A DNA stretch of 64,000 nt from Spirochaetia bacterium (GTDB lineage Bacteria > Spirochaetota > Spirochaetia > SZUA-6 > Bin103), in contig CBDBOV010000006.1 in NCBI GenBank assembly GCA_965208575.1, positions 1,597,306-1,661,305 of the forward strand, written 5' to 3'. Every line of letters begins with the position of its first letter. Position 1 is the stretch's first letter. Below are positions 709 to 58,268 of the stretch, piece by piece. Made by a program: the position numbers and the translations under genes. The notes under the pieces were generated by a model. That model saw only the letters and a list, made by a program, of their open reading frames with translations, did not search any database and had not been told where the DNA came from.

Positions 709-2244
709 ATGGCCAATCTCCTCAGTTCCTACCTGGCGGCGACTCCGCCCGAGCACGTGACGGCGCCGATGGCCGCCTACGTTGCCGCCCTCGACCAGAT
801 GTACGACGGGTCCCCGGACGTCGCCGCCGCGGTGGTGCGCGAACTCGCCGACCAGCGCGCTCACCTGAAGCTGATCGCCAGCGAGAACTACGCTTCGCTC
901 GCGGTGCAGGCCGCCATGGGCAACCTGCTCACCGACAAGTACGCCGAGGGCGTGCCCGGGCACCGCTTCTACGCCGGCTGCGCCAACGTCGACGAGGTGG
1001 AGCAGCGCGCGGCGCATCTGGCGTGCGAGCTGTTCGGCGCCGAGCACGCCTACGTGCAGCCGCACAGCGGCGCCGACGCCAACCTGGTGGCGTACTGGGC
1101 CATTCTGGCCACGCGCGTGGAGCAGCCCCGGCTGGCCGACCTGCGGGCGAAGTCCGCGCTGGCGCTGAGCGAGACCGACTGGCAGCGGCTGCGCGCGGAG
1201 CTGGGCAATCAGCGCCTGCTGGGCATGGACCTGGGCGCCGGCGGCCACCTGACCCACGGCTACCGGCTGAACGCGTCCGGGCGCATGTTCGAGTGCCACT
1301 CGTACGGCGTGGACCCGGACAGCGGATTGCTGGACTACGACGCGCTGGAGCGCCAGGCGTGCGAGGTGCGCCCGCTGATCCTGCTGGCCGGTTACAGCTC
1401 CTACCCGCGTGCCCTGGACTTCCGCCGCCTGCGCGCCATCGCCGACGCCGCGGAGGCGGTGCTGATGGTGGACATGGCCCACTTCGCCGGGCTGGTGGCC
1501 GGCGGCGCGCTTGCCGGTGACCATGATCCGGTGCCGTTCGCCGACGTGGTGACCTCCACCACCCACAAGACCCTGCGCGGCGCCCGCGGCGGCCTGGTGC
1601 TGTGCCGCGGCGAGTTCGCCGAGGCGGTGGACCGCGGCTGTCCGCTGGTGCTCGGCGGGCCGCTGCCGCAGATGCTGGCCGCCAAGGCGGTGGCGTTCGC
1701 CGAGGCGAACCGCCCCGAGTTCGCAAGCTACGCCCGGCAGGTGGTGGCCAACGCCAAGGCGCTGGCGGACGGGTTGCTGGCACGCGGGCTGGCGCTGGTG
1801 ACCGGCGGCACCGACAACCACCTGCTGGTGCTGGACGTGGCGCAGTGCGGGGTGACCGGCAGGCAGGCGGAATCGGCGCTGCGCGACGCCGCCGTCATGG
1901 CCAACCGCAACGCCATCCCCGGCGACCGCAACGGGCCGTGGTATACCTCCGGGCTGCGCCTGGGCACCCCGGCACTGACCACGCTCGGCATGCGCGAGGA
2001 GCAGATGGAGCAGGTGGCGGCGCAGATCGCGCGCGTGCTCGATGCCGTGCAGCCGGCGCCGGTCACGCGCGGCAAGCTCGCCGGCACTCCGAGCCGCAGC
2101 CGCTACCGCCTGCCCGCCGAGGTAGCCGGCGGGGTGCGCGCCGACGTGGCCCGCCTGCTGGCCGGCTATCCCGCCTATCCGGGCCTCGACCTGGACGTGC
2201 TGCAGACCCTGCTGGCCGACGCCGACGGCAGGTGCTCAGGTTAG
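709..2244 (+). CDS. glyA: Serine hydroxymethyltransferase (long form)
   Basis: [39 protein letters not shown] (PLP lysine), [15 protein letters not shown]; start taken at ATG 709. Confidence 0.96.
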
Positions 2245-4338
2245 GGTAGCTATACTCGCCCTCAATTCGGCTAGTTCGGCAACGATATCGGGTCGTCTCC
2301 GGACCTCTCGTTCCACCTCCTGCCATTGCTCGAATTGCGTGATGAGGGTACCGAGATGGCCGGAGTTACGCTTCAGTACATCGTTCACTACGGCCGGCGT
2401 GGCACCGTTCCGGGAAGCGTTGAGGATACAGATCGCAACCATGCGGTGATCTCCTCCCAGGAAATCCAGATCCTGAGACAGGACTTGCGCGTACTCTTCA
2501 GAGCATCGTGTGGATGTTTCGGAAGCGTCTGGCGCTACGTCCAGCTCGCAATAAACCATCGGGTGCCAGCAGAACAACCGCTGGAGGTGGATCTCGATAG
2601 ATTCCGACAAATGACTCAGTGTCATCGTGAGCCAACATTCTCTCGTGCAGTCGAACAATGAGCGCCACAACACCCGCGCCTCATCGGAACGAGAGTTGGG
2701 CGGTGAGAGCAACCAAGCAACTGCCGACACTCCGACCGCGAGAAGAAAGAGAGAGGGAGCAAGTGCATCGCTGTCGTTCGTCCGGGTCCAGTGCTGGACG
2801 CGTCGGCGCTGCTCAACCAGCAAATCCCATGATTGGCGCCATCGCTCGGAGGGATTCGGTTGGTTCGCCACCAAGCTACCGAGGTAGCGTGCCGGCATGC
2901 CGTCAAGGCCCTCTCCTACATTCGTTTCCAGTTCGAATCCAGCGTGGCGCGAAGCCAGCAACCGATCGAACAAGCACAAGCGTTCCCGCTCCACATCACC
3001 GCACGAGTTGTCATTCGCAAAATCGACCAAGCGCATTGCGAGTAGCGCGCCAAGGCGATGATCGGGCGAATCGTCACGCGGTGCGGGCCGGCCCGGGGCG
3101 ATCTCGCCGCCAGGGGGCAGCGTGGAGAAGTCGACCTGATCAGCGATCGTGCCGGTGGTAAGGCCAGCCTTCGCGAGGCCCACGGCCACCCATTCGATCA
3201 GATCAGCTTGCGGGATGCGCCGATCGGAGCTCTGTCGAGTGAATCCAAGGTGGGCGCGCTGTTGACGTTCATCGCCGAGCTTCGTGAACAGCCACTGTTC
3301 AGCGAGGAACTGGCCGTCAGACCGGTCCATGATGACTCTGCCAAGCTGTTTGATCCATGGCAGGAGAGTGCGCTTCACTTTTTCAAGAACCTGCGGTCTA
3401 GTATCGTCCGGGCTATCCGCACATTCTACTCCCCATAGCGCGTCACAGTGATCACCCACGACCTGAAGTACGAGTAATGCGAACGGGTGATGGTTCCACG
3501 ATCGCCCATCATCGCTGCATGGAGGCGCCTTCTCGAGCAAAGCGGCGATTTCCTCGCGGTCATGGATAACTGGTGATCGAAAGAGAATCTGCTGTATCGG
3601 AAGCGGAAACTCCAAACGGTCCAAACAATCAACTATTTCGTCTCTGGCCTCGGCAAGGAGCCCGGGAATCATGCTCAGGAGCTCATCGTGGAAGTTTACG
3701 AACTCAAACTCCTTGAGTCTTTCAATCGACGGCTCCTTACTCCACGCGTCAGCGGCCTGCCTCAGCCCTTCCCGGTCTTGACTTAGAAACGTGCCAATAC
3801 CAGGATCTTCATTGATTTCGTTGACCCGTGACTCGAGCAGGTCAATGATTATGCGGCGAACCGACTGAGATCGACGAATCAGATCTCGTAACGAATCGAC
3901 AAAGCAGGAGGCGAGGAAGAACTCATGACCGATCACATTCCATAATTTGGGAACGAGTAGTCTGATCTGCTCGCTGTCCCGCTCTAGTGCGTCCACGAGA
4001 GCCTTCCCAAACAGCCGGCCCATGACGTCTCGTTGGGAGTGATCACGCCGTTCGATCACCGCCCTGAACCCCGCCTCTAGGGTCTGGCGTTGCCGAGGAT
4101 CCGAAATGGCGTGGAATGCTTCGTCCGGATACCGGGTGGTAAGCACCGCGGTGAAAGTAGCGAGGCCGTTTCCTCGGTCTCCGGAATCGAGCACGTCGGC
4201 TGCAAACAGCACGTCGCGGCACCACTCGGCTAGACCGACGACCATCGCTTCCGCGTCGACGACGCGTGCGGCCGCTTCGGACGCATCTTGGAGCCTCTTG
4301 TCGATGCGATGTTGCTCGAGTCTCGGGTCACGCATCAT
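2236..4338 (-). CDS. Hypothetical ~700-aa, probably alpha-helical protein; third gene of low-GC cassette
   Basis: Long ORF in low-GC DNA; ATG 4338 follows GGAG RBS and overlaps the end of the upstream gene; no motif recognised. Confidence 0.8.
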
Positions 4339-4966
4339 TTCGTCTCCAACATTCCTCGAAAAAGGGGACTGCACGTGTCGCCGTTTCCGGCCACGGCCCG
4401 CTCACTGCCGTCAATCCGGAGTGCCCACCGCCGACGGTCGCGCCGAAGTGCCAGAGGCCCCCGTCGATGATAGCAAACCGATCATGCAGGAACGGGTAAC
4501 GACCTGTGTCGAGGATCGCGCGCCAGTGAACCTCCACTTGGCGGCTGTCATGCCGCTCTTGGTTGCAGCTCCATGTGAGCATGTTCGCCAGTCGTGTCCT
4601 GACGACATCTCTTAGACGTCCCCTCCCCGTAAGCAGCCGCACGTCGTGGGCTTGGCTGGAAACCAAAGCGCCACCCAGAATATCGGCGCCCTGCTTGTCG
4701 AAGTGACGATCAAGCACGAACACATGCACCTCGGCACCCACTACGGCCTCCTCGAAGGCGATCAGACTGAGTTCGTTGCCAGCTTCGATTGAATCCCTCC
4801 TGGCACGGATTGCGTCCGCATCAGGAAAATGAGGGACGTCATGACGGTCCATGCGCTCTCCATATCTGATCGAGGGCCAGAGCAACTGCGGCCCTACCGA
4901 TGGTGTCGGAAGCTGCTCAACCGCTACCCGCGGGGCGACACCGGCTTTCGGCTGCAGAGGGGTCAT
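4328..4966 (-). CDS. Small PLD-like (HDR-variant HKD) nuclease-domain protein
   Basis: VFVLDRHF and FLHDRFAIIDGGLWHFGATVGG resemble the HxR/K-x4-D-x6-G PLD-like nuclease signature. Confidence 0.7.
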   Translation of the reverse strand: MTPLQPKAGVAPRVAVEQLPTPSVGPQLLWPSIRYGERMDRHDVPHFPDADAIRARRDSIEAGNELSLIAFEEAVVGAEVHVFVLDRHFDKQGADILGGALVSSQAHDVRLLTGRGRLRDVVRTRLANMLTWSCNQERHDSRQVEVHWRAILDTGRYPFLHDRFAIIDGGLWHFGATVGGGHSGLTAVSGPWPETATRAVPFFEECWRRNDA

Positions 4967-5002
4967 GCACTCTCGCCGGGTGCCGTCACAACGGTCGACG
5001 CA

Positions 5003-6574
5003 TCATACGGCGTGGTCCTCGTGCACTGGTAACAACTCCTGGTCGGCACGGTCGGCTAACCACTCCGAGAGAGGACGCGCCTGCAGCCAGAACGATTCGA
5101 GCCGCTCGACGACCGGTTCGGGGTCAGGCAACTTGACGATCATACCTGCCCGCTCCCCGATGCTGTTCAGTGAATTGCCTGAGAACCAGACGCTTCCGTC
5201 TATCACCAGGAAGCGATCGTGTACGGGTGGCGAATCTCCGAGGATCCTTATTTCCGGCTTGCGGGAATAGTCGTCGAACGTAGTCGTTTTAATCTTCTGA
5301 AGGTTCGATCCCGCTTCAAGCGCAGTCTCACCTAAGTCGGAATTCTTGAGACCCCTTGTAGAACTGAGGATACGAATGTGCACTCCGCTACGACTAGTAG
5401 CGTGACCAAACGCTAGTAATTCACGTCCGGCGAAATATGGATCCACAATGAATACCGCGTCGCGTGCCGAGCCAATTCTCGCACGTACAAACTGTGTCGC
5501 CTCTTGTGGAGTTTTGTAGAACCATTCTTGATCATAACCTTTGGCTGTCTGTCGACGAGAGCGTCGCATCTCCGCCTCCACAATCCGCGATAACGGATTG
5601 CGCGCCGTTTCTCCTATGATACTCTCTACTGTATCGCCGACTTCGTCTACTTGGTACCGCTCAAGCGGCCGCCGACGCCCTCCTGCGGGTACCTCAACCG
5701 TCTTTCGTCTCCGTATCATCCCTATACTCGTGCGGATCGATCTAACGAAAGGAGACGGTTTGCTCCAATACAAGAGACCGAACACAGGGTGAGTGATTGA
5801 GATACCTTCCTTGAAAATCCTGGTGGGAAAAGAAGTAACCTTGATCGGATCGTTGTCGAACTCGTGCACCTCAGGAGAGAGTCGACCGCGGACCCGTTCG
5901 TTCGTTATTTCCAATCGCAGCCCCTTGGGACACTGTCCTTGGCGTGTTACTACTCTGTATGCTACGGTCTCAACCGTATGCGTGTCCGTTGCGTTGCGGA
6001 GCGATCGATCGACTGACCGGAAGACAGGATTGGGTGCTGCTATACAAATGGCTCCCTGATATTCGCTATAGGTATCAATGATGTCAAAACCCAACCAATC
6101 CTCCAACTCTCTACGATTCCTGTCGGATTTTATAACATCTCGAACTTCGGCAGGAATAGAATCTCGGGGGAACAGAGAGTGTGATCGCGCGCTAACCATC
6201 CAGTCCGGCACAAAAGGAAGGTCGTTGGATGTGATGGTCTGTGGCCAGCACGGCTCTTGGACGAATGCGCCTGTGGACAGTGTAGCGCCGTCACCAGGTG
6301 TGGGAGTATTCGGATCGCACGGGAGAGTTATTGGGTTTCCTGCGGTTGCACTCCTATACCACTCGATCCCCTCCGTCGATTGCATTAAGAAGCGACGATA
6401 GTAGAGGTACTTCCGTCCGCTTGACGTGGCGCGATGTGTGTATTCTGGAGACCCGACCGCGTCGGGGAACTCATTCGGCCGCAGTTCGACCAAGCCGAAC
6501 AGCAGATGGCGCAGGTGATCGTCCCGGAACCAAGCAAGGTGGATGACGGCCTGACCATACCCAGTGCTCTCCAT
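5003..6574 (-). CDS. VPA1262-like protein with C-terminal PLD-like (HDR) nuclease domain
   Basis: Strong GGAGG RBS; VFIVDPYF and VHDRFLVIDGSVWFSGNSLNSIG at the C-terminus; family resemblance from memory, not searched. Confidence 0.72.
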   Translation of the reverse strand: MESTGYGQAVIHLAWFRDDHLRHLLFGLVELRPNEFPDAVGSPEYTHRATSSGRKYLYYRRFLMQSTEGIEWYRSATAGNPITLPCDPNTPTPGDGATLSTGAFVQEPCWPQTITSNDLPFVPDWMVSARSHSLFPRDSIPAEVRDVIKSDRNRRELEDWLGFDIIDTYSEYQGAICIAAPNPVFRSVDRSLRNATDTHTVETVAYRVVTRQGQCPKGLRLEITNERVRGRLSPEVHEFDNDPIKVTSFPTRIFKEGISITHPVFGLLYWSKPSPFVRSIRTSIGMIRRRKTVEVPAGGRRRPLERYQVDEVGDTVESIIGETARNPLSRIVEAEMRRSRRQTAKGYDQEWFYKTPQEATQFVRARIGSARDAVFIVDPYFAGRELLAFGHATSRSGVHIRILSSTRGLKNSDLGETALEAGSNLQKIKTTTFDDYSRKPEIRILGDSPPVHDRFLVIDGSVWFSGNSLNSIGERAGMIVKLPDPEPVVERLESFWLQARPLSEWLADRADQELLPVHEDHAV

Positions 6575-6657
6575 GATGTTCCTCCGTTCCGAGCAAGGGT
6601 ACCGCTTGCAGCCGCCAGTGCGACCGCAACGCGCAGCGTTCCCTCCTCAAGCAAACT

Positions 6658-6731
6658 CGCGTCCAGCGCGACTCGAACGCGCGACCCGCAGCTTAGAAGG
6701 CTGCTGCTCTATCCGACTGAGCTATGGACGC
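6658..6731 (-). tRNA. tRNA-Arg(TCT)
   Basis: Reverse complement GCGTCCATAGCTCAGTCGGATAGAGCAGCAGCCTTCTAAGCTGCGGGTCGCGCGTTCGAGTCGCGCTGGACGCG folds as a cloverleaf; anticodon loop CT-TCT-AA. Confidence 0.96.
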
Positions 6732-6750
6732 CTGGCGCATGTTCTGACGT

Positions 6751-6823
6751 TCGGGATGAGAGGACTCGAACCTCCGATCTCCTGCTCCCAAAGCAGGTGC
6801 CCTAGCCGCTGGGCTACATCCCG
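6751..6823 (-). tRNA. tRNA-Pro(TGG)
   Basis: Reverse complement CGGGATGTAGCCCAGCGGCTAGGGCACCTGCTTTGGGAGCAGGAGATCGGAGGTTCGAGTCCTCTCATCCCGA; anticodon loop TT-TGG-GA. Confidence 0.96.
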
Positions 6824-6851
6824 GGTACGGCACGCCAATGCCTGACACCGG

Positions 6852-6881
6852 AATATAGAAGCGCAATCGCCACGAGGTCAA
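6852..6881 (-). promoter_or_regulatory. Putative sigma70 promoter of the tRNA-Pro/tRNA-Arg unit
   Basis: Minus strand TTGACC (6881-6876), 18 nt, TATATT (6857-6852), about 30 nt upstream of tRNA-Pro. Confidence 0.6.
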
Positions 6882-6904
6882 CGGCCGCGGGCGGGCGGGG
6901 CGGG

Positions 6905-8140
6905 TCAGGCGAGCAGGCGCGGTGGCGCAACGCCGGGGTCGGCCTCGGCGCGGCCCACCAGGTGCGCGATCAGTGCCGCCGTGGTGACGTCGAGCAGTAC
7001 CGCGGCGCCGGTGAGCAGCGGCAGCACGGGCTGCATGATGAGCGGGCCGTCCGCGAGTCCGTTGCCGGACAGCGACCACAGTATGGTCAGGCTGCCCAGC
7101 GCACCGATGCCGGGCACGGCGCCGGCGGCGAAGGAGAGCAGGAACGTGAACAGCGCGGCAAACAGGAGCTGCTCGACGGTGACCTCGAAGCTGGTGTAGG
7201 AGCGCAGCACCACCAGGTAGCCGATGCCGGTGACCAGCGCGGTGCCGGCGCGTCCGAACACGGTGCACAGCGGGAACACGGTGGCGCTGACCCGGCGCGG
7301 CAGCCGGAACGAGTCGCGGCCGTGCACCACCAGCGCAGCGAGGCTGACGTAGGAGTCGCCGCTGACAAGTGCGGTGAGCGCCGGTCCCAGGGCGGCGTAG
7401 ATCGAGCGGTAGGGGTTGGTGCGCTCGCCGAGCAGGTAGAGCAGGGCCGGAAACACGCCCAGGTAGAGCACGCCCACGGCGACTGCCAGGACCACGATCA
7501 ACTCACGGTACAGCGCCAGGTCGGCCCCGCCGAGCTGCACCGCCGAGGCCGCCGCGATCACCACGACCGCCACCCAGAACAACTCCACCACCAGGGCGTT
7601 GATCTGATAGAAGATGCGGCACAGCGACTCGAACAGTTCCGTCACCGGGCGCCCTGCCGTGTCGTCGAAGTCGAGATGCGCCCCGAACACGAACCCGAGC
7701 GCCAGCAGCGGCAGCAGCATCGAGCCGTCGCCCACCAGCGCCTGGAACATGTTGCCGGGGAAGGTGCCGGCCACGAGGTCGATAAGCCCGGCGGGCGTGC
7801 GCGGCGCCTGCTCGACGATTACCACGATGGGAATGCGCTGCGGCGCCAGCAGCAGTACCGACGCCAGGCCCGCCACGGTGAGCAGGGCGCTGCTGCCGGC
7901 CAGGTACAGCGCCAGCCGCGCATACACGCGCAGCGCGGTGCCAGTCGAACGCAGCTCGTGGGTGCTCATGACCACGCCGAAGAAGATGACCGGGAACACC
8001 GCGTAGCGCCCGACCTGCAGGGCGACCCGGGACAGCCGCGGGAGGAGATCGGCGACCTCGCCGCCGCCGCCGCGGCTCAGCAGGACTCCGATCACCAACC
8101 CGGCCGCCGCCGCCAGCGCGGTCTTGAGCCACAGTTTCAT
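6905..8140 (-). CDS. Dicarboxylate/amino acid:cation symporter (DAACS family)
   Basis: Multiple TM helices, FPGNMFQAL, GDSYVSL, FPLCTVFGRAGTA, AGAVPG; start ATG 8140 (MKLWLK). Confidence 0.8.
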   Translation of the reverse strand: MKLWLKTALAAAAGLVIGVLLSRGGGGEVADLLPRLSRVALQVGRYAVFPVIFFGVVMSTHELRSTGTALRVYARLALYLAGSSALLTVAGLASVLLLAPQRIPIVVIVEQAPRTPAGLIDLVAGTFPGNMFQALVGDGSMLLPLLALGFVFGAHLDFDDTAGRPVTELFESLCRIFYQINALVVELFWVAVVVIAAASAVQLGGADLALYRELIVVLAVAVGVLYLGVFPALLYLLGERTNPYRSIYAALGPALTALVSGDSYVSLAALVVHGRDSFRLPRRVSATVFPLCTVFGRAGTALVTGIGYLVVLRSYTSFEVTVEQLLFAALFTFLLSFAAGAVPGIGALGSLTILWSLSGNGLADGPLIMQPVLPLLTGAAVLLDVTTAALIAHLVGRAEADPGVAPPRLLA

Positions 8141-8271
8141 CTCCGGCAAGGGTGCCGCCGCCGCCGGCCGCCGTCAACGCCCGCGGGTGCCGCGGTGCGC
8201 CACGGCGGCGCCGCCGGATCGGTCCGGGCGGGTCACGAAGCTGCCCGGCTTGCGGCAGGCGCCTGCCCTGT

Positions 8272-9156
8272 TCAGCGCCGGCCGGCAGCTTCCGGAGCAT
8301 GCGAGCGGTCGCCGGACGGGGCGCTGCAGCGGCGTGCCAGGGCGTCGTAGCGGGCGGCCTCGGCGGTACGACCGCGCTTGCGGCAGCCGGCGGCGTAGAT
8401 GCGCGCCTTGCGCGCCAGTTCGGCCGCGGCCGCGGCCCGTTGCGAGCGAGTGAAGTACCGGCAGTCGCCCCGTTCCACAAGGTCTCGCAGCGCGCGCAGG
8501 CGGAACAGCTCGATGTGGCCGTAGCGTTCGGAGAGCTGGTCGCCGTGGCCGGCGCGCTTGATCACCGACTCGCGCTCCACGTAGCCGACCGGGTGGCGCG
8601 CGGTGAGCCGCAGCCACAGCTCGTAGTCCTCGGCGATCTCCAGGTCCTCGCGGAAGCCGCCGGCGGCCTCGAACACGTCGCGGCGCAGCAGCACGGTGGA
8701 GGGGCCGATGATGCACTTGCGCAGCGAGTCCGCGAACAGGTAGCCGCTGCGCCGGTGGCGCTGGCCGCGCTGCGATACGACCCGCCCGCCGCGCAGCCAG
8801 CGTTCACGGGTGTGGTTGATGGCGTCGCCAGCGGCGGTGGCCGCGGCCACCTGCACCGCGAGCTTGTGCGGCAGCCACAGGTCGTCGGAGTCCAGGAACG
8901 CGAGGTACTCGCCGCGCGCCACGCGGACCCCGGCGTTGCGCGCCCGGCCCGGCATGCCGGTGTGGTCCTGGCGCACCAGGCGCAGGCCGCGAAACGACCG
9001 CAGGCGGGCGGCGGTGGCGTCGGTCGAGCCGTCGTCCACCACGATCAGTTCGCGCGCGGCGTAGTCTTGCGCCAGCACCGAGGCGATCGCCTCGCACAGC
9101 AGGGCGGCGCGGTTGTAGGTGGGAATGACGACCGACACCAGCGGCTGCGACTGCAT
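8272..9156 (-). CDS. Glycosyltransferase family 2
   Basis: VSVVIPTYNR, VVDDGSTD, ARNAG, AFLDSDD, EDYELWLR; start ATG 9156. Confidence 0.92.
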   Translation of the reverse strand: MQSQPLVSVVIPTYNRAALLCEAIASVLAQDYAARELIVVDDGSTDATAARLRSFRGLRLVRQDHTGMPGRARNAGVRVARGEYLAFLDSDDLWLPHKLAVQVAAATAAGDAINHTRERWLRGGRVVSQRGQRHRRSGYLFADSLRKCIIGPSTVLLRRDVFEAAGGFREDLEIAEDYELWLRLTARHPVGYVERESVIKRAGHGDQLSERYGHIELFRLRALRDLVERGDCRYFTRSQRAAAAAELARKARIYAAGCRKRGRTAEAARYDALARRCSAPSGDRSHAPEAAGRR

Positions 9157-9242
9157 CACGCACAGGATGCTACCGACGCCGGGCCATGCGCACCAGCGGC
9201 GGGTTGCGGAAATGACCTGCGACCGGCAGGCTCCGGGACGGT

Positions 9243-9743
9243 ATGGCATTGCCGGATCGAATCGCCCTGGTGGGATTCATGGGCTCGGGCAAGAGCACCG
9301 TGGGGCGGCTGCTCGCGACCGCGGTCGGCTACCAGTTCGTCGACGTGGACACGCTGATCGAGCGGGCCGCGGGGATGTCGATTCCCGAGCTGTTCCGGCG
9401 CGACGGCGAGGAGGCGTTCCGGGCCCTCGAGACGCGCATGCTGCTCGAGCTCGGCGCACGTCGCAGCGTGGTGATCGCGACCGGCGGCGGCGCTCCGATG
9501 CGCACCGTCAACCACGAGTTCCTGCGCACCAGGTGCCGCGCCTTCTACCTGCAGATCAGCGCCGCCGAAGCGCAGCGCCGAGTGGGCGGCTCAGGAGGCC
9601 GGCCGCTGCTGGCGGCCACGCCGGAAGGCATAGCGGGTCTGCTCGCGTCGCGCCACGACACCTACGCCGTCACCGGCGAAACCATCCCGGCCGAGGGACG
9701 CTCGCCACTGCAGGTGGTTGCGGCCATCCGTGCGCTGTTGTAA
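9243..9743 (+). CDS. aroK: Shikimate kinase
   Basis: GFMGSGKSTVG, DVDTLIE, GEEAFRALE, IATGGG, RPLL. Confidence 0.93.
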   Translation: MALPDRIALVGFMGSGKSTVGRLLATAVGYQFVDVDTLIERAAGMSIPELFRRDGEEAFRALETRMLLELGARRSVVIATGGGAPMRTVNHEFLRTRCRAFYLQISAAEAQRRVGGSGGRPLLAATPEGIAGLLASRHDTYAVTGETIPAEGRSPLQVVAAIRALL

Positions 9744-9764
9744 CCGGGGTAGACCGGCCCTCGG

Positions 9765-10073
9765 TCACCGCTTGCCGGCGGCGGCACGCGCGGCGAGAAT
9801 GTGCAGCACCTCGTCGAGCGGTACCTCCGCGGCTGCCAGCAGCACCAGCAGGTGATAGATCAGGTCCGCGCTTTCGGCTGCCAGTTCGGCGCCGGTGGCG
9901 GCGGTGATCACTTCAATCGCTTCCTCGCCCACCTTCCTGCGGATGGCGGCGTCGCCGGTGCGAAACAGGGCGGCGGTGTACGAGCCCTCCGGCAGCGTGC
10001 GGCGCCGGTCGCGGATTACTTGTTCCAGCCGTTCCAGGACAACGGCGGCCGATTCGGGCGTCGGGCGGCTCAT
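9765..10073 (-). CDS. hisE: Phosphoribosyl-ATP diphosphatase
   Basis: SYTAALF, KVGEEAIE, ESADLIYHLLV. Confidence 0.92.
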   Translation of the reverse strand: MSRPTPESAAVVLERLEQVIRDRRRTLPEGSYTAALFRTGDAAIRRKVGEEAIEVITAATGAELAAESADLIYHLLVLLAAAEVPLDEVLHILAARAAAGKR

Positions 10074-10858
10074 TGCGCCGGGTGGCGTTCGCGGGCGGCG
10101 GTCTCAATGTGCCCGCCGGCGCCGGCGCCGGCGTCGTCCTGCGGATAGCGGCGCAGCAAGTCGTCCAGGTCGACGCGGCCCTCAATCCACGCCTTGCCGA
10201 TGATCACGCCCACCACCCCCTCGGCGCGCAGGCCGGCCGCCGCGTCCACGTCGTGCGCCGCGCCGATCCCGCCCGACAGGATGACCGGCTTCCGTGCGCT
10301 GCGCGCCACCGCCACGGTGCGTTCGATGTCGGGACCGGCGAAGGTGCCGTCGCGGGCGATGTTGGTGTACACGATGGCGCACACCGGCTGTTCCTTCATG
10401 CGCGCGGCCAGGTCGGTGTCCGCCACGCCGCCGCCGGTGAGCCAGCCGTGGGTCTTCACCACGCCGTCGTCGGCGTCGATGCCGGCCACCAGCCGGTCGC
10501 CCACCTGCGCCGCCCAGCGTTCCGGCAGCTCCGGATCCTGCGCCAGCGCCGAGCCGACCACGACGCGGTCCACGCCCATGTCCAGCAGCCGGCGCGCATC
10601 GTCCAGCGTGCGCACGCCGCCGCCGACCTGCAGCCGCACCCCCACCGCGGCACGGATTGCGGCGATCAGCGTGCGGTTGTCGCCGCTGCCGCGGGCGGCG
10701 TCGAGGTCCACGAGGTGCAGCCAGCGCGCACCCTTCCGCTCCAGTTCGACGGCGCTGCCCGCGGCATCGCGCGCGTAGTCGGTAACGGCATCGAAGCTGC
10801 CCCTGGTGAGGCGCACCGGCCGCCCGTCGAGCAGGTCGATGGCGGGCAGAATGAGCAT
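10070..10858 (-). CDS. hisA: ProFAR isomerase
   Basis: ILPAIDL, LHLVDLDAA, QVGGGVR, YTNIARDGT, SGGIG, IIGKA. Confidence 0.94.
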   Translation of the reverse strand: MLILPAIDLLDGRPVRLTRGSFDAVTDYARDAAGSAVELERKGARWLHLVDLDAARGSGDNRTLIAAIRAAVGVRLQVGGGVRTLDDARRLLDMGVDRVVVGSALAQDPELPERWAAQVGDRLVAGIDADDGVVKTHGWLTGGGVADTDLAARMKEQPVCAIVYTNIARDGTFAGPDIERTVAVARSARKPVILSGGIGAAHDVDAAAGLRAEGVVGVIIGKAWIEGRVDLDDLLRRYPQDDAGAGAGGHIETAARERHPAQ

Positions 10859-56052: not shown

Positions 56053-57336
56053 TCAGGATGGAGTATCTTCGTGGGATTCGACTTCAAGGTCGTGATCCTC
56101 ATGGTACGTCGGTTGGTATTCCTCGGTCTCCATATCGGGGTCGGCATCGCACAACCTCTGCAAATCCCATGTCGTAATGGCGGCACGCACTTTGTAGCGC
56201 ATCCGTTTCTGGTAGCCGGCGCCGCCGCCGGCCGCGCTGACGGAGGGTGCAGCCCAGTCGTATGCTCGGCTGTAGATGCGTCTGATGTGTTCCACGGCGG
56301 CATCCACGCGGTCGTCGGTCACTTCACTCAGTCGGGTACGGCGGGAAGACAGCCACTGCATGCCAAGTTCTGCCTGCCGCGCCATTTGTGCATCGCCTCG
56401 CTCACGCAACCTTGCCGGAACCTTGACGCGGTCGCCCTTCTCTTCGAGTATCGCCTCGACGAAGTCCTCCGTGATTGCCGCCACTACCACCAGCCCAGGA
56501 TAGCGGGCATCATCCGCTACGCCCATCCAGCGGGCCAGTTCGGCATACGACCGTGCCCGCTGCAACAGGCTGTAGCTGCCGATCAGTTCCAACTCGTCGA
56601 TCAGTACCACCCAGCCCCGGTGGCCGGACGTCTTTATCATTTCCAGGACGAAGCGCAATCGTTGCGGGGGCAGGTCGCGGAGTTTCGGCGCGCGAAACTG
56701 ATAGGTTCCCTGCTGCCCGATCTCGCGCAGTCCGCGCTTTACGTCGCCCACCGCCACCTTGTCACCCGACCAGAACCACCTGATGGCGTTCAGCATCTCC
56801 TGATCAGGTAGGCGTTCGTGCACCATGAGTGTCGCGGGGAAAATACGGTGCAGGTTGCTGGAAGCGCTGTCAGCCCAACGAAAGAAAGCAGCATAGCGGG
56901 GGTCCTTCGGACCGGCCAACCGGTTGCCGATTTCATCCACCATGGCACCGACTCTGCCGTCGGGAAGCACGCCGGTGTCGGCCGCGGCACGAAACATCTT
57001 GCCCAAGTCGTAGAAGGGCGTTTCCTTGCTCACGGCGACGCGGCTACAGACGAAACCCCGTTCCAGTGAGATGTTCTCGAAGTGCTCCAGCAGGTGCGAC
57101 TTGCCGGCGCCAAAGTCACCCGATATCAGCAGGCCGTCCGGATCTTCGCCATCGTCGCGACTGAGGCGTTCCTGGAACTGTCGCTCAGCCTGCGGCTGCG
57201 TGCTTCCGAGAATCCGCACTGCCACGCGGTTCGGCACCCCGTTGCGTAGCGCTTCTATCGCGCGGCGGCAGTCGAGCTGCTCGGGAAGGTACTCCACGCC
57301 ATCCTCCATCGCTGGATTCAACCCATCAACCGACAT
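56053..57336 (-). CDS. DUF2791/BrxD-like P-loop ATPase (intact)
   Basis: IEALRNGVP; Walker A GDFGAGKS; Walker B VVLIDELE. Confidence 0.82.
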   Translation of the reverse strand: MSVDGLNPAMEDGVEYLPEQLDCRRAIEALRNGVPNRVAVRILGSTQPQAERQFQERLSRDDGEDPDGLLISGDFGAGKSHLLEHFENISLERGFVCSRVAVSKETPFYDLGKMFRAAADTGVLPDGRVGAMVDEIGNRLAGPKDPRYAAFFRWADSASSNLHRIFPATLMVHERLPDQEMLNAIRWFWSGDKVAVGDVKRGLREIGQQGTYQFRAPKLRDLPPQRLRFVLEMIKTSGHRGWVVLIDELELIGSYSLLQRARSYAELARWMGVADDARYPGLVVVAAITEDFVEAILEEKGDRVKVPARLRERGDAQMARQAELGMQWLSSRRTRLSEVTDDRVDAAVEHIRRIYSRAYDWAAPSVSAAGGGAGYQKRMRYKVRAAITTWDLQRLCDADPDMETEEYQPTYHEDHDLEVESHEDTPS

Positions 57337-58268
57337 AGCGCCGCCGCCGGATTTTCGATTCTCTTGTCGCGAACGTCATCGATGATCCGCGTCTGCAACG
57401 CAGGATAAATCCCGACGCCGCGAGACCGTCGATCTGCCTCCTGGTCCAGAAACGCCGCGTCCGAGCAGGACACGATCATCGTCGCGAAGAGCAAGTCAGC
57501 GCTATCGATGAACTCCCGCATTATCTCGTAGAAATCCATGGTCATAGCTCTGGTGTAGTACCGTGAGCCGTCGGATGGCCTTGTCCGGTCCGTAACCCGA
57601 GTGCTGTCGAGAATTACCACGGTTCCCGGGTAGCCTGCCTTGGAGAACCAATAGAATGCCGAGCGAAGCAGATGCCGTGCCGTCGTACGGTTAATCGGAT
57701 TGTAGATCGAGAACGGCTTCACGTTCGAAATGCGCGTATTGACTCCCGTGAGCCAGTCGATGATTGGCTGTCCGGGATAGTGCTGCTCCGCGGAGCGCTC
57801 CATCAGGCACAGGTGCGACATCGCTACCCGAAAGTCTTTGGCCATATTCGCGTCATAGAATACGTCTCGTTGAAGACGTGGATTCAACGCCGTGAGGAGA
57901 AACTCCTTGCCAATCTTGTTAAGTTCAGCCACGGCCTGCAGCGCGTGCTCATCGGCGGGCGTAACGCCATCTGTCTGGTAGCCCTCACGTGCCAAGAGTC
58001 CCATAAGGTACCGGCGAGCCGCCAGCCGCCAGTCCACTTGTGCTGCAATGGCGAAAAACAGATCCTGCGGCATGTGGAATCGATGTGCCGCGGCATCCGC
58101 GCTCAACACGAGATAGCCACGATCCTGGGCGAGCTTGGTCAAGCCTTGTCGTACTGCGGACCGCTGCATCCCGTCACCGACAACGAACTTGACCGCGGCC
58201 CCGCCGCTCACCACGAAGGTAGCAAGGTAGTCACGCTCAATCTGTTCCAGCCAGTCCGTGACGTGCAT
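57318..58268 (-). CDS. DUF2791/BrxD-like protein with degenerate P-loop
   Basis: GGAAVKFVVG without GKS/T; TVVILDS in place of Walker B DE; YEIMREFID and YPALQTRI motifs. Confidence 0.7.
   Translation of the reverse strand: MHVTDWLEQIERDYLATFVVSGGAAVKFVVGDGMQRSAVRQGLTKLAQDRGYLVLSADAAAHRFHMPQDLFFAIAAQVDWRLAARRYLMGLLAREGYQTDGVTPADEHALQAVAELNKIGKEFLLTALNPRLQRDVFYDANMAKDFRVAMSHLCLMERSAEQHYPGQPIIDWLTGVNTRISNVKPFSIYNPINRTTARHLLRSAFYWFSKAGYPGTVVILDSTRVTDRTRPSDGSRYYTRAMTMDFYEIMREFIDSADLLFATMIVSCSDAAFLDQEADRRSRGVGIYPALQTRIIDDVRDKRIENPAAALCRLMG

Follow-up and report, generated by a model that had tools for sequence, protein, structure and literature searches.

A three-gene cassette with two H-D-R half-sites in a Spirochaetia bacterium: a candidate defence system related to Juno

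Introduction

Single-motif nucleases of the phospholipase D (PLD) superfamily, such as Nuc, NucT and BfiI, make one active site out of two half-sites by dimerising, and the canonical motif of the superfamily, HKD, reads H-x-K-x4-D. Here we describe a cassette of three genes, which we call A, B and C, found in a stretch of 64,000 nucleotides (nt) from the genome of a Spirochaetia bacterium (contig CBDBOV010000006.1, positions 1,597,306 to 1,661,305; hereafter the window). Two different proteins of this cassette each carry one PLD-like half-site, with a variant of the canonical motif.

The described systems closest to this cassette are Juno and a handful of defence systems with PLD-like domains. 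Juno is the new name of the VPA1262 family, given in an August 2026 preprint (bioRxiv 10.64898/2026.08.01.741415); in the portion of its text available, a single gene protects Escherichia coli against phage, and protection is reported for the Juno proteins of Pantoea agglomerans and Vibrio parahaemolyticus only. PLD-like domains are also found in a defence setting in DISARM, as DrmC, and in PDC-S05, whose validated representative is described, in the part of the source that we draw on, with a RhuM domain (10.1101/2024.09.26.614923). Our reading of the cassette, to which we give a probability of about 0.5, is that A-B-C is a relative of Juno that defends against phages or mobile elements, with the half-site of A paired to that of B and with C as a sensor or scaffold. 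What is new here is B, a second half-site on a protein of its own, together with the evidence for A-B-C across the family.

Results

Two proteins carry one H-D-R half-site each

The three genes are co-oriented on the reverse strand and are read in the order A, B, C:

5003..6574, (-) strand: gene A, 523 amino acids (aa), from the open reading frame (ORF) and its translation
4328..4966, (-) strand: gene B, 212 aa, from the ORF and its translation
2236..4335, (-) strand: gene C, 699 aa from an ATG, its start placed through homologues
4328..4335, (-) strand: overlap of the B stop and C start codons, read directly from the sequence and consistent with translational coupling

A gap of 36 nt separates A from B. 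The frame of C stays open upstream to a GTG at 4374 in the ORF table, from which the protein would have 712 aa; since the database homologues of C are 699-703 aa long and start at MRDPRL, the ATG at 4335 is the likely start. The locus had been singled out by a model from the letters alone (the original prediction) as three closely spaced genes beside a tRNA-Arg gene, of low GC and with a PLD-like motif in each of the first two. ORF calls and tRNA scan agree on this layout, and the quoted motifs and the DPYF and DRHF strands were all found in the translations of A and B. The drop in GC was borne out as well: it is 0.51-0.63 over 2251-6500 (500-nt windows) vs 0.66-0.77 in the flanks, and the two 2-kb bins that cover the cassette (0.593 and 0.581) are the lowest among the 32 bins of the window.

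Protein A belongs to NCBIfam NF040700, the N-terminal domain of the VPA1262 family, a domain model of 478 positions that A matches at 210.6 bits (cut-off 80), with aa 57-496 aligned to profile positions 3-476. Its match to Pfam PLDc_2 reaches 26.5 bits against a gathering score of 27, and 37 of 56 members of the A family match PLDc_2 at E<=0.01. In the AlphaFold2 model (mean predicted local distance difference test, pLDDT, 88.6; predicted template modelling score, pTM, 0.70; alignment of 56 sequences), A consists of a beta-rich N-terminal region and a Nuc-like PLD-fold domain, joined by a linker helix that is poorly modelled:

5612..6574, (-) strand: beta-rich N-terminal region of A, aa 1-321 (AlphaFold2 model)
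5738-6034, (-) strand: immunoglobulin/fibronectin type III (Ig/FN3)-like sandwich of A, aa 181-279, at middling Z (about 8-8.8)
5039..5566, (-) strand: PLD-fold (Nuc-like) domain of A, aa 337-512 (alpha/beta in the model over about 350-515)

The top structural matches of the PLD domain are SauUSI, NucT, Nuc and NgoAVII, that is, single-domain nucleases and nuclease domains of restriction enzymes. Structure modelling and structure comparison thus both place the motif region of A in a PLD fold, as had been predicted. A search for fused, longer forms of A found none, which is weak evidence.

The half-sites themselves are carried by FIVDPYF and VHDRFLVIDGSVWFSGNSLN in gene A and by FVLDRHF and LHDRFAIIDGGLWHFGATVGG in gene B:

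5165..5221, (-) strand: A motif HDRFLVIDGSVWFSGNSLN, aa 452-470, an H-x-R variant of HKD
5432-5443, (-) strand: A partner strand DPYF, aa 378-381
4427..4486, (-) strand: B motif HDRFAIIDGGLWHFGATVGG, aa 161-180
4700-4714, (-) strand: B upstream LDRHF strand, aa 85-89

Both motifs read H-D-R-x4-D in place of the canonical H-x-K-x4-D. Conservation puts them beyond chance: all 64 B and all 56 A sequences keep the H-D-R and the Asp upstream of it, together with P379, Y380, F455, D459, G466, S468 and L469 in the diverse A set (besides D378, H452, D453 and R454), and with P48, W172, H173 and G175 in the B set (besides D86, H161, D162 and R163). No member of the A, B or Juno alignments departs from the Arg of H-D-R.

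B has no family match of its own in Pfam, NCBIfam or PHROGs. Its family profile aligns with that of A (hhalign probability 97.9%, E 3.7e-13; B 43-174 on A 329-467), and 12 of 64 members of the B family match PLDc_2 at E<=0.05; because of these matches we regard B as a free-standing paralogue of the PLD-like domain of A. Against the Protein Data Bank (PDB), the best match of the B profile is MITD1, a weak one (E 0.094). B has its own conserved N-terminal extension of about 60 aa with a P.L.WPS motif, and neither A nor B has a hydrophobic segment. An exhaustive search gave 292 cluster representatives of the B family at E<=0.001 (50% identity level).

Protein C is a putative acidic solenoid

Protein C has no match in Pfam, NCBIfam, PADLOC or PHROGs; a Pfam scan of 65 members of its family showed no recurrent family, and its sequence profile found nothing in the PDB. 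It is confidently modelled as an acidic all-alpha solenoid of no known family (pLDDT 87.6, pTM 0.86, alignment of 65 sequences; net charge about -30). Foldseek returned no match to this model at E<=0.001 and only generic solenoids at TM<=0.25, likenesses too slight to rise above the noise that the tool shows for helical repeats. C diverges fast, identity falling to about 11%, and few of its residues are conserved (W280, R338, D340, W348, W499, W503, R510, G535 and N643). A hydrophobic stretch at about aa 525-543 was considered as a membrane anchor and rejected, because its hydrophobic character is not kept across the family.

A, B and C are inherited together across phyla

A metagenome scan seeded with B alone gave 80 loci and 73 distinct B ORFs. 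Of the 59 loci in which 1700 nt or more of upstream sequence is available, 58 have A directly before B, and an ORF of the C family is present in all 54 with at least 2100 nt downstream. Where both flanks are available the order is A-B-C in 48/49 loci, the exception (L047) having B and C, with no A within 1740 nt upstream. Second-round recruits of the C profile had E values of 1e-29 to 1e-165 before entering it (7e-40 for the Klebsiella C), and among the 3948 ORFs no off-target one matched it even at E<=10. When the loci are compared pair by pair, the identities of A, B and C rise and fall together (53 loci, r 0.94-0.98 between the matrices, a value reached by 0 of 999 permutations), and therefore the three genes travel together. 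The co-occurrence elsewhere, whose lack would have told against the original prediction, is thus observed: A-B-C is a conserved unit, inherited together, across phyla.

Other routes also led to the unit, which occurs in four more phyla and on plasmids of proteobacteria. Four genome loci were found via C (two in Binatia, one in Gemmatimonadota and one in Latescibacterota), all with A directly upstream of C and three of the four with B in between; the first contig scan with C alone as query found nothing. In the Latescibacterota locus (L009, 7971-9659), C is without roughly its first 170 residues. A plasmid search from A gave nine records, of which seven were examined and two (H2 and H9, second plasmids of the same two species) left out. 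Plasmids of Azospirillum, Burkholderia glumae and Klebsiella variicola carry A, a small protein and a protein of 640-660 aa whose ends overlap or abut, i.e. A-B-C. B is missing from those of Methylorubrum, Bradyrhizobium septentrionale and Rhizobium tumorigenes, which carry A and the large protein, and L013-L015 are of this A-C form. On one Bradyrhizobium barranii plasmid A is followed by an IS630 element and then by a 557-aa ORF that falls outside the recruits of the C profile. The DNA of the Klebsiella cassette had no match among 5,426 E. coli genomes. In IMG/VR, A and B stand on four contigs, and C on the three that reach past B.

An A-C form is also found among the genome loci: L008 (Gemmatimonadota, 6327-10151) has A and C about 120 nt apart, no B, and an A that is 55% identical to that of the window. 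In a quick maximum-likelihood tree of 65 A proteins, which was used for all tree results, the window's A and the copy of a relative (G006) fall in an eight-row clade with Latescibacterota, Gemmatimonadota and Binatia (100% in the Shimodaira-Hasegawa-like approximate likelihood ratio test, SH-aLRT), which points to transfer between phyla.

The cassette shares a core with Juno and is not Juno

The VPA1262/Juno family proper is defined by NF040699, a model of 1026 positions with a cut-off of 325 bits. A gives no match to it at E<=1, and a six-frame search of the window's own genome with NF040699 found none at E<=10. The plasmid homologues of A reach only 14-42 bits, over profile positions of about 345-532, the PLD region. 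When 401 genomes of the phylum were sampled, 2 had true Juno, in L122 (G438:C12) and L123 (G190:C1), with scores of 592 and 450 bits and ORFs of 1111 and 1046 aa; four further loci of this sample have full-length or partial matches to NF040699 below threshold.

Profile comparison relates A to Juno: A 251-511 aligns with positions 279-574 of a Juno profile of true and near-true sequences at a probability of 95.8% (E 7.9e-9), and in the Juno alignment D-P and H-D-R-Y are invariant. Juno is thus like the cassette in having a core and PLD-like region homologous to A, the same H-D-R variant of HKD and the same D-P strand, and, as far as the available preprint text goes, a mobile, defence-rich context like that of the A-B-C relatives. 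It differs in being one protein of about 1000-1100 aa vs three genes here, of which A has only 523 aa. Neither the C-terminal half of Juno, after the PLD-like region, nor any other part of it shows similarity to C: hmmsearch with C profiles gave nothing below E 0.2, and hhalign a probability of 0.1% against a Juno profile of five sequences. Juno also has no B-like second PLD protein; the B profile matches it only at its single PLD region, and no B- or C-like neighbours of Juno were found in L122 and L123. The cassette thus has the Juno core and its odd motif and is yet not Juno, and against the five-sequence profile C is not detectably its C-terminal half. The proposal that the first gene resembles the VPA1262 family holds in part: A is a member of NF040700 and not of NF040699, and the family is no longer uncharacterised. 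Likewise, the claim that the cassette matches no named system stands insofar as PADLOC names none here, and falls insofar as it shares a homologous core with a named one.

Sequence identity to Nuc (1byr/1bys), NucT (6ehi) and the nuclease domains of BfiI (2c1l), NgoAVII (4rct) and SauUSI (7clg) is 7-18%; these single-HKD nucleases keep the Lys where A and B have Arg. They also differ in that A has a beta-rich N-terminal region of 320 aa and the partners B and C, and their systems in that the cassette contains no helicase or methyltransferase. DISARM and PDC-S05 are alike in the PLD-like domain; PADLOC finds no DrmA, DrmB or methylase in the cassette, unlike in DISARM. PDC-S05 gives a weak local match to A (30.1 bits, aa 352-487, only profile positions 175-292 of 306) that is limited to its PLD-like stretch and a weak one to B (13.9 bits), and C matches no PADLOC model. 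No published description of an A-B-C cassette was found in the literature searched, which covers few of the subscription journals.

The cassette is an insertion between glyA and tRNA-Arg

In the window the cassette fills the space between two housekeeping genes:

6658..6731, (-) strand: tRNA-Arg(tct), which bounds the insertion on the right and lies 83 nt upstream of A (ARAGORN and Rfam)
1000..2244, (+) strand: 3' part of glyA, which bounds the insertion on the left, convergent with C and overlapping it by 9 nt (ORF table)
6751-6823: tRNA-Pro(tgg), next after tRNA-Arg

The site is empty in 5/5 genus relatives examined (G001, G003, G007, G009 and G010), in which a junction alignment sets the end of glyA and this tRNA-Arg some 30-38 nt apart, with nothing in between; their glyA is 79-91% identical to the window's at the DNA level. 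In a sixth relative, G006, this site is occupied by A, B and C, with protein identities of 96, 80 and 88%, and a sponge-metagenome contig in public runs has a cassette that is about 93% identical, again at this site. With C as query, a strong match was found in 2 of the 61 genomes of relatives, a third match of 40 residues being dismissed as chance level. The B profile has one strong match in a sample of 301 genomes of the phylum, which is the window's own genome, and its other eight matches there are weak and to other PLD-like proteins. We looked for an integrase and for an att-like direct repeat at the island borders and found neither. The locus is a horizontally acquired, integrase-less islet of 4.4 kb that holds one three-gene operon, A-B-C, its foreign origin following from its low GC, the empty site in relatives, the single strong B match in the phylum sample and the cross-phylum clade of A.

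Promoter and terminator scans of the cassette gave chance-level results only, and a predicted 'terminator' at 6658-6681 was rejected, being the tRNA itself. In the public run that best holds the locus, one contig fuses 2224 to 6657 and so omits 4432 nt; it suggests an empty allele, carried by cells of that sample that lack the cassette, weakly so because the shorter side of the contig is only 27 nt. Five short contigs of a metatranscriptomic library (151-438 nt, 90-97% identical) fall on gene C of a related strain, corresponding to 2347-4000 of the window, and none on A or B; DNA carry-over may account for them, and they do not demonstrate transcription.

Most relatives lie among mobile or defence genes

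A scan of the neighbours covered 95 flanking ORFs in 25 long distinct loci, with defence neighbours taken within about 5 kb. Mobile-type genes were found by Pfam in 13 of these loci, and include integrases, relaxases and coupling proteins, Tn7-like TniB/TniQ, a terminase, a portal protein and a primase-helicase. Credible PADLOC defence proteins (E<=1e-20) were found in 10/25: type IIG/ISP and type I restriction, DruA, PD-Lambda-4, AbiEi/AbiEii (twice), GajA/GajB (three loci), PDC-S10 and a Mokosh-like helicase. One extra locus has an Mrr-type nuclease, called by Pfam only. Three candidates were set aside as probably generic, namely QatD (TatD-like, L020), mad3 (an ABC ATPase, L060) and TniQ_IB (L086). 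Combined, mobile or defence neighbours surround 20 of the 25 loci, as raw counts taken without a background set, a context that supports the original prediction.

Some neighbours adjoin the cassette directly. In L077 (21-3368) a 1115-aa AAA_11/AAA_12 protein with a PADLOC match to MkoC/MkoA ends at the start of A, and so does a 1314-aa 'ATP-binding protein' on the Azospirillum plasmid (L010, 1943-5887); such large ATPase or helicase genes may be part of four-gene versions of the system or of other systems stacked upon it. The A-C form adjoins an annotated SIR2 family protein on the Methylorubrum plasmid (L013, 10452-13542) and a ThiF + DUF6527 pair on the Bradyrhizobium plasmid (L014, 1-1487), both gene types that are seen in defence islands.

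Far from the cassette, at 56053-58268 of the window on the (-) strand, two adjacent ORFs of 427 and 316 aa match Pfam BrxC_BrxD, the family of the BREX ATP-binding protein (E 1.6e-21 and 5.6e-8), in a stretch of lower GC (0.60 in the 56-58 kb bin). Next on this strand come a 262-aa ORF without a match and genes for multihaem cytochrome c and for cytochrome b.

Discussion

We read A-B-C as a defence system built on the Juno core, and a mechanism can be proposed on the model of the single-motif nucleases. The half-site of A would pair with that of B in an A:B pseudo-dimer with one phosphodiesterase centre, and the beta-rich N-terminal region of A would position the substrate, most likely DNA. 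C would be a scaffold or sensor that holds the phosphodiesterase off until an infection cue, upon which cleavage of invading or cellular nucleic acid would stop the phage. The parts of this proposal do not carry the same confidence: a defence role of some kind is probable, while the specific composite site made by A and B, drawn by analogy with the dimerising nucleases, is tentative.

Several observations weigh against this reading, and most of them concern B. A single gene is enough for protection in Juno, and B is dispensable in parts of its own family (L008 and L013-L015), so that a second, different half-site is not obligatory in the wider family, given that B-less A-C forms exist. In the quick tree the sister of L008, the Gemmatimonadota locus without B, is a locus that contains B, a placement that suggests that B was lost in the L008 lineage. 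Most of our loci were retrieved through B, which biases the ratio of three-gene to two-gene forms, and the dominance of A-B-C over A-C is therefore partly by construction. Catalysis is itself an assumption, because the Lys of HKD is an Arg in every member, and among the matches of the fold are also phosphatidylserine synthase and phospholipases, as well as MITD1, FAM83 and TrmB, which are non-catalytic. As for the context, the flanks of the cassette in the window are housekeeping genes, not a defence island, and the neighbour counts among relatives are raw counts.

The main rival explanation keeps the defence role and changes the arrangement of the parts. The active enzyme could be a homodimer of A, with B as a decoy or regulatory half-site that caps A, much like an antitoxin, until a cue from C or the phage releases it. 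Cassettes without B exist, one of them nested among A-B-C cassettes, and Juno has one PLD-like region with no B- or C-like neighbour in L122 and L123; single-gene Juno and the A-C forms must themselves work as homodimers. The conserved extension of about 60 aa at the N-terminus of B, with its P.L.WPS motif, could serve as a docking peptide for such a cap. Yet H161, D162, R163 and D86 are invariant in 64 B sequences, which is more than a cap seems to need, and we consider this arrangement unlikely for the three-gene form.

Two lesser rivals concern the substrate and the role. That the PLD-like pair acts on a phospholipid, a nucleotide or another small phosphodiester, and defends by damaging membranes or depleting a metabolite, would fit the change from K to R, which marks the clade as atypical, and the best PDB match of the B profile, MITD1, weak as it is (E 0.094). 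The top structural matches are however all nucleases (SauUSI, NucT, Nuc and NgoAVII) and neither A nor B has a hydrophobic segment, which makes a substrate of this kind quite improbable. Lowest of all we place the view that the cassette is not immune in function and is instead a selfish module, for addiction, stabilisation or competition between elements, on plasmids, transposons and islands. Its presence on conjugative plasmids, the 13/25 loci beside integrases, relaxases, Tn7-like or phage genes, and the housekeeping flanks in the window all agree with such a module; but defence systems share the same mobile context, A is homologous to the core of Juno, and restriction-modification, Gabija, AbiE and Druantia genes are co-located in 10 of the 25 loci.

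Returning to defence, a bolder version of our reading is that A-B-C is a distinct and widespread defence family in its own right, not a split Juno, and that it is a heteromeric H-x-R phosphodiesterase held and switched by the acidic solenoid C as a dedicated sensor, its two different half-sites lying one beside the beta-rich, substrate-binding domains of A and the other on B alone. We regard this version as doubtful. If it is true, the H-x-R motif would define a new catalytic sub-clade of PLD proteins, common to A-B-C and Juno.

The Juno preprint describes a single gene, and in the portion of its text available a mechanism is absent. The cassette and its relatives show a modular form of the Juno core (beta-strands with an H-D-R PLD-like domain), in which that core comes with a dedicated solenoid partner and often with a second, free-standing half-site, B. 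This form is found in several bacterial phyla, on plasmids and on contigs that resemble prophages. It also brings to light an invariant Lys-to-Arg variant of the HKD motif that is common to A, B and Juno. With the half-sites and the putative sensor on separate proteins, the cassette offers a natural dissection of a Juno-like mechanism.

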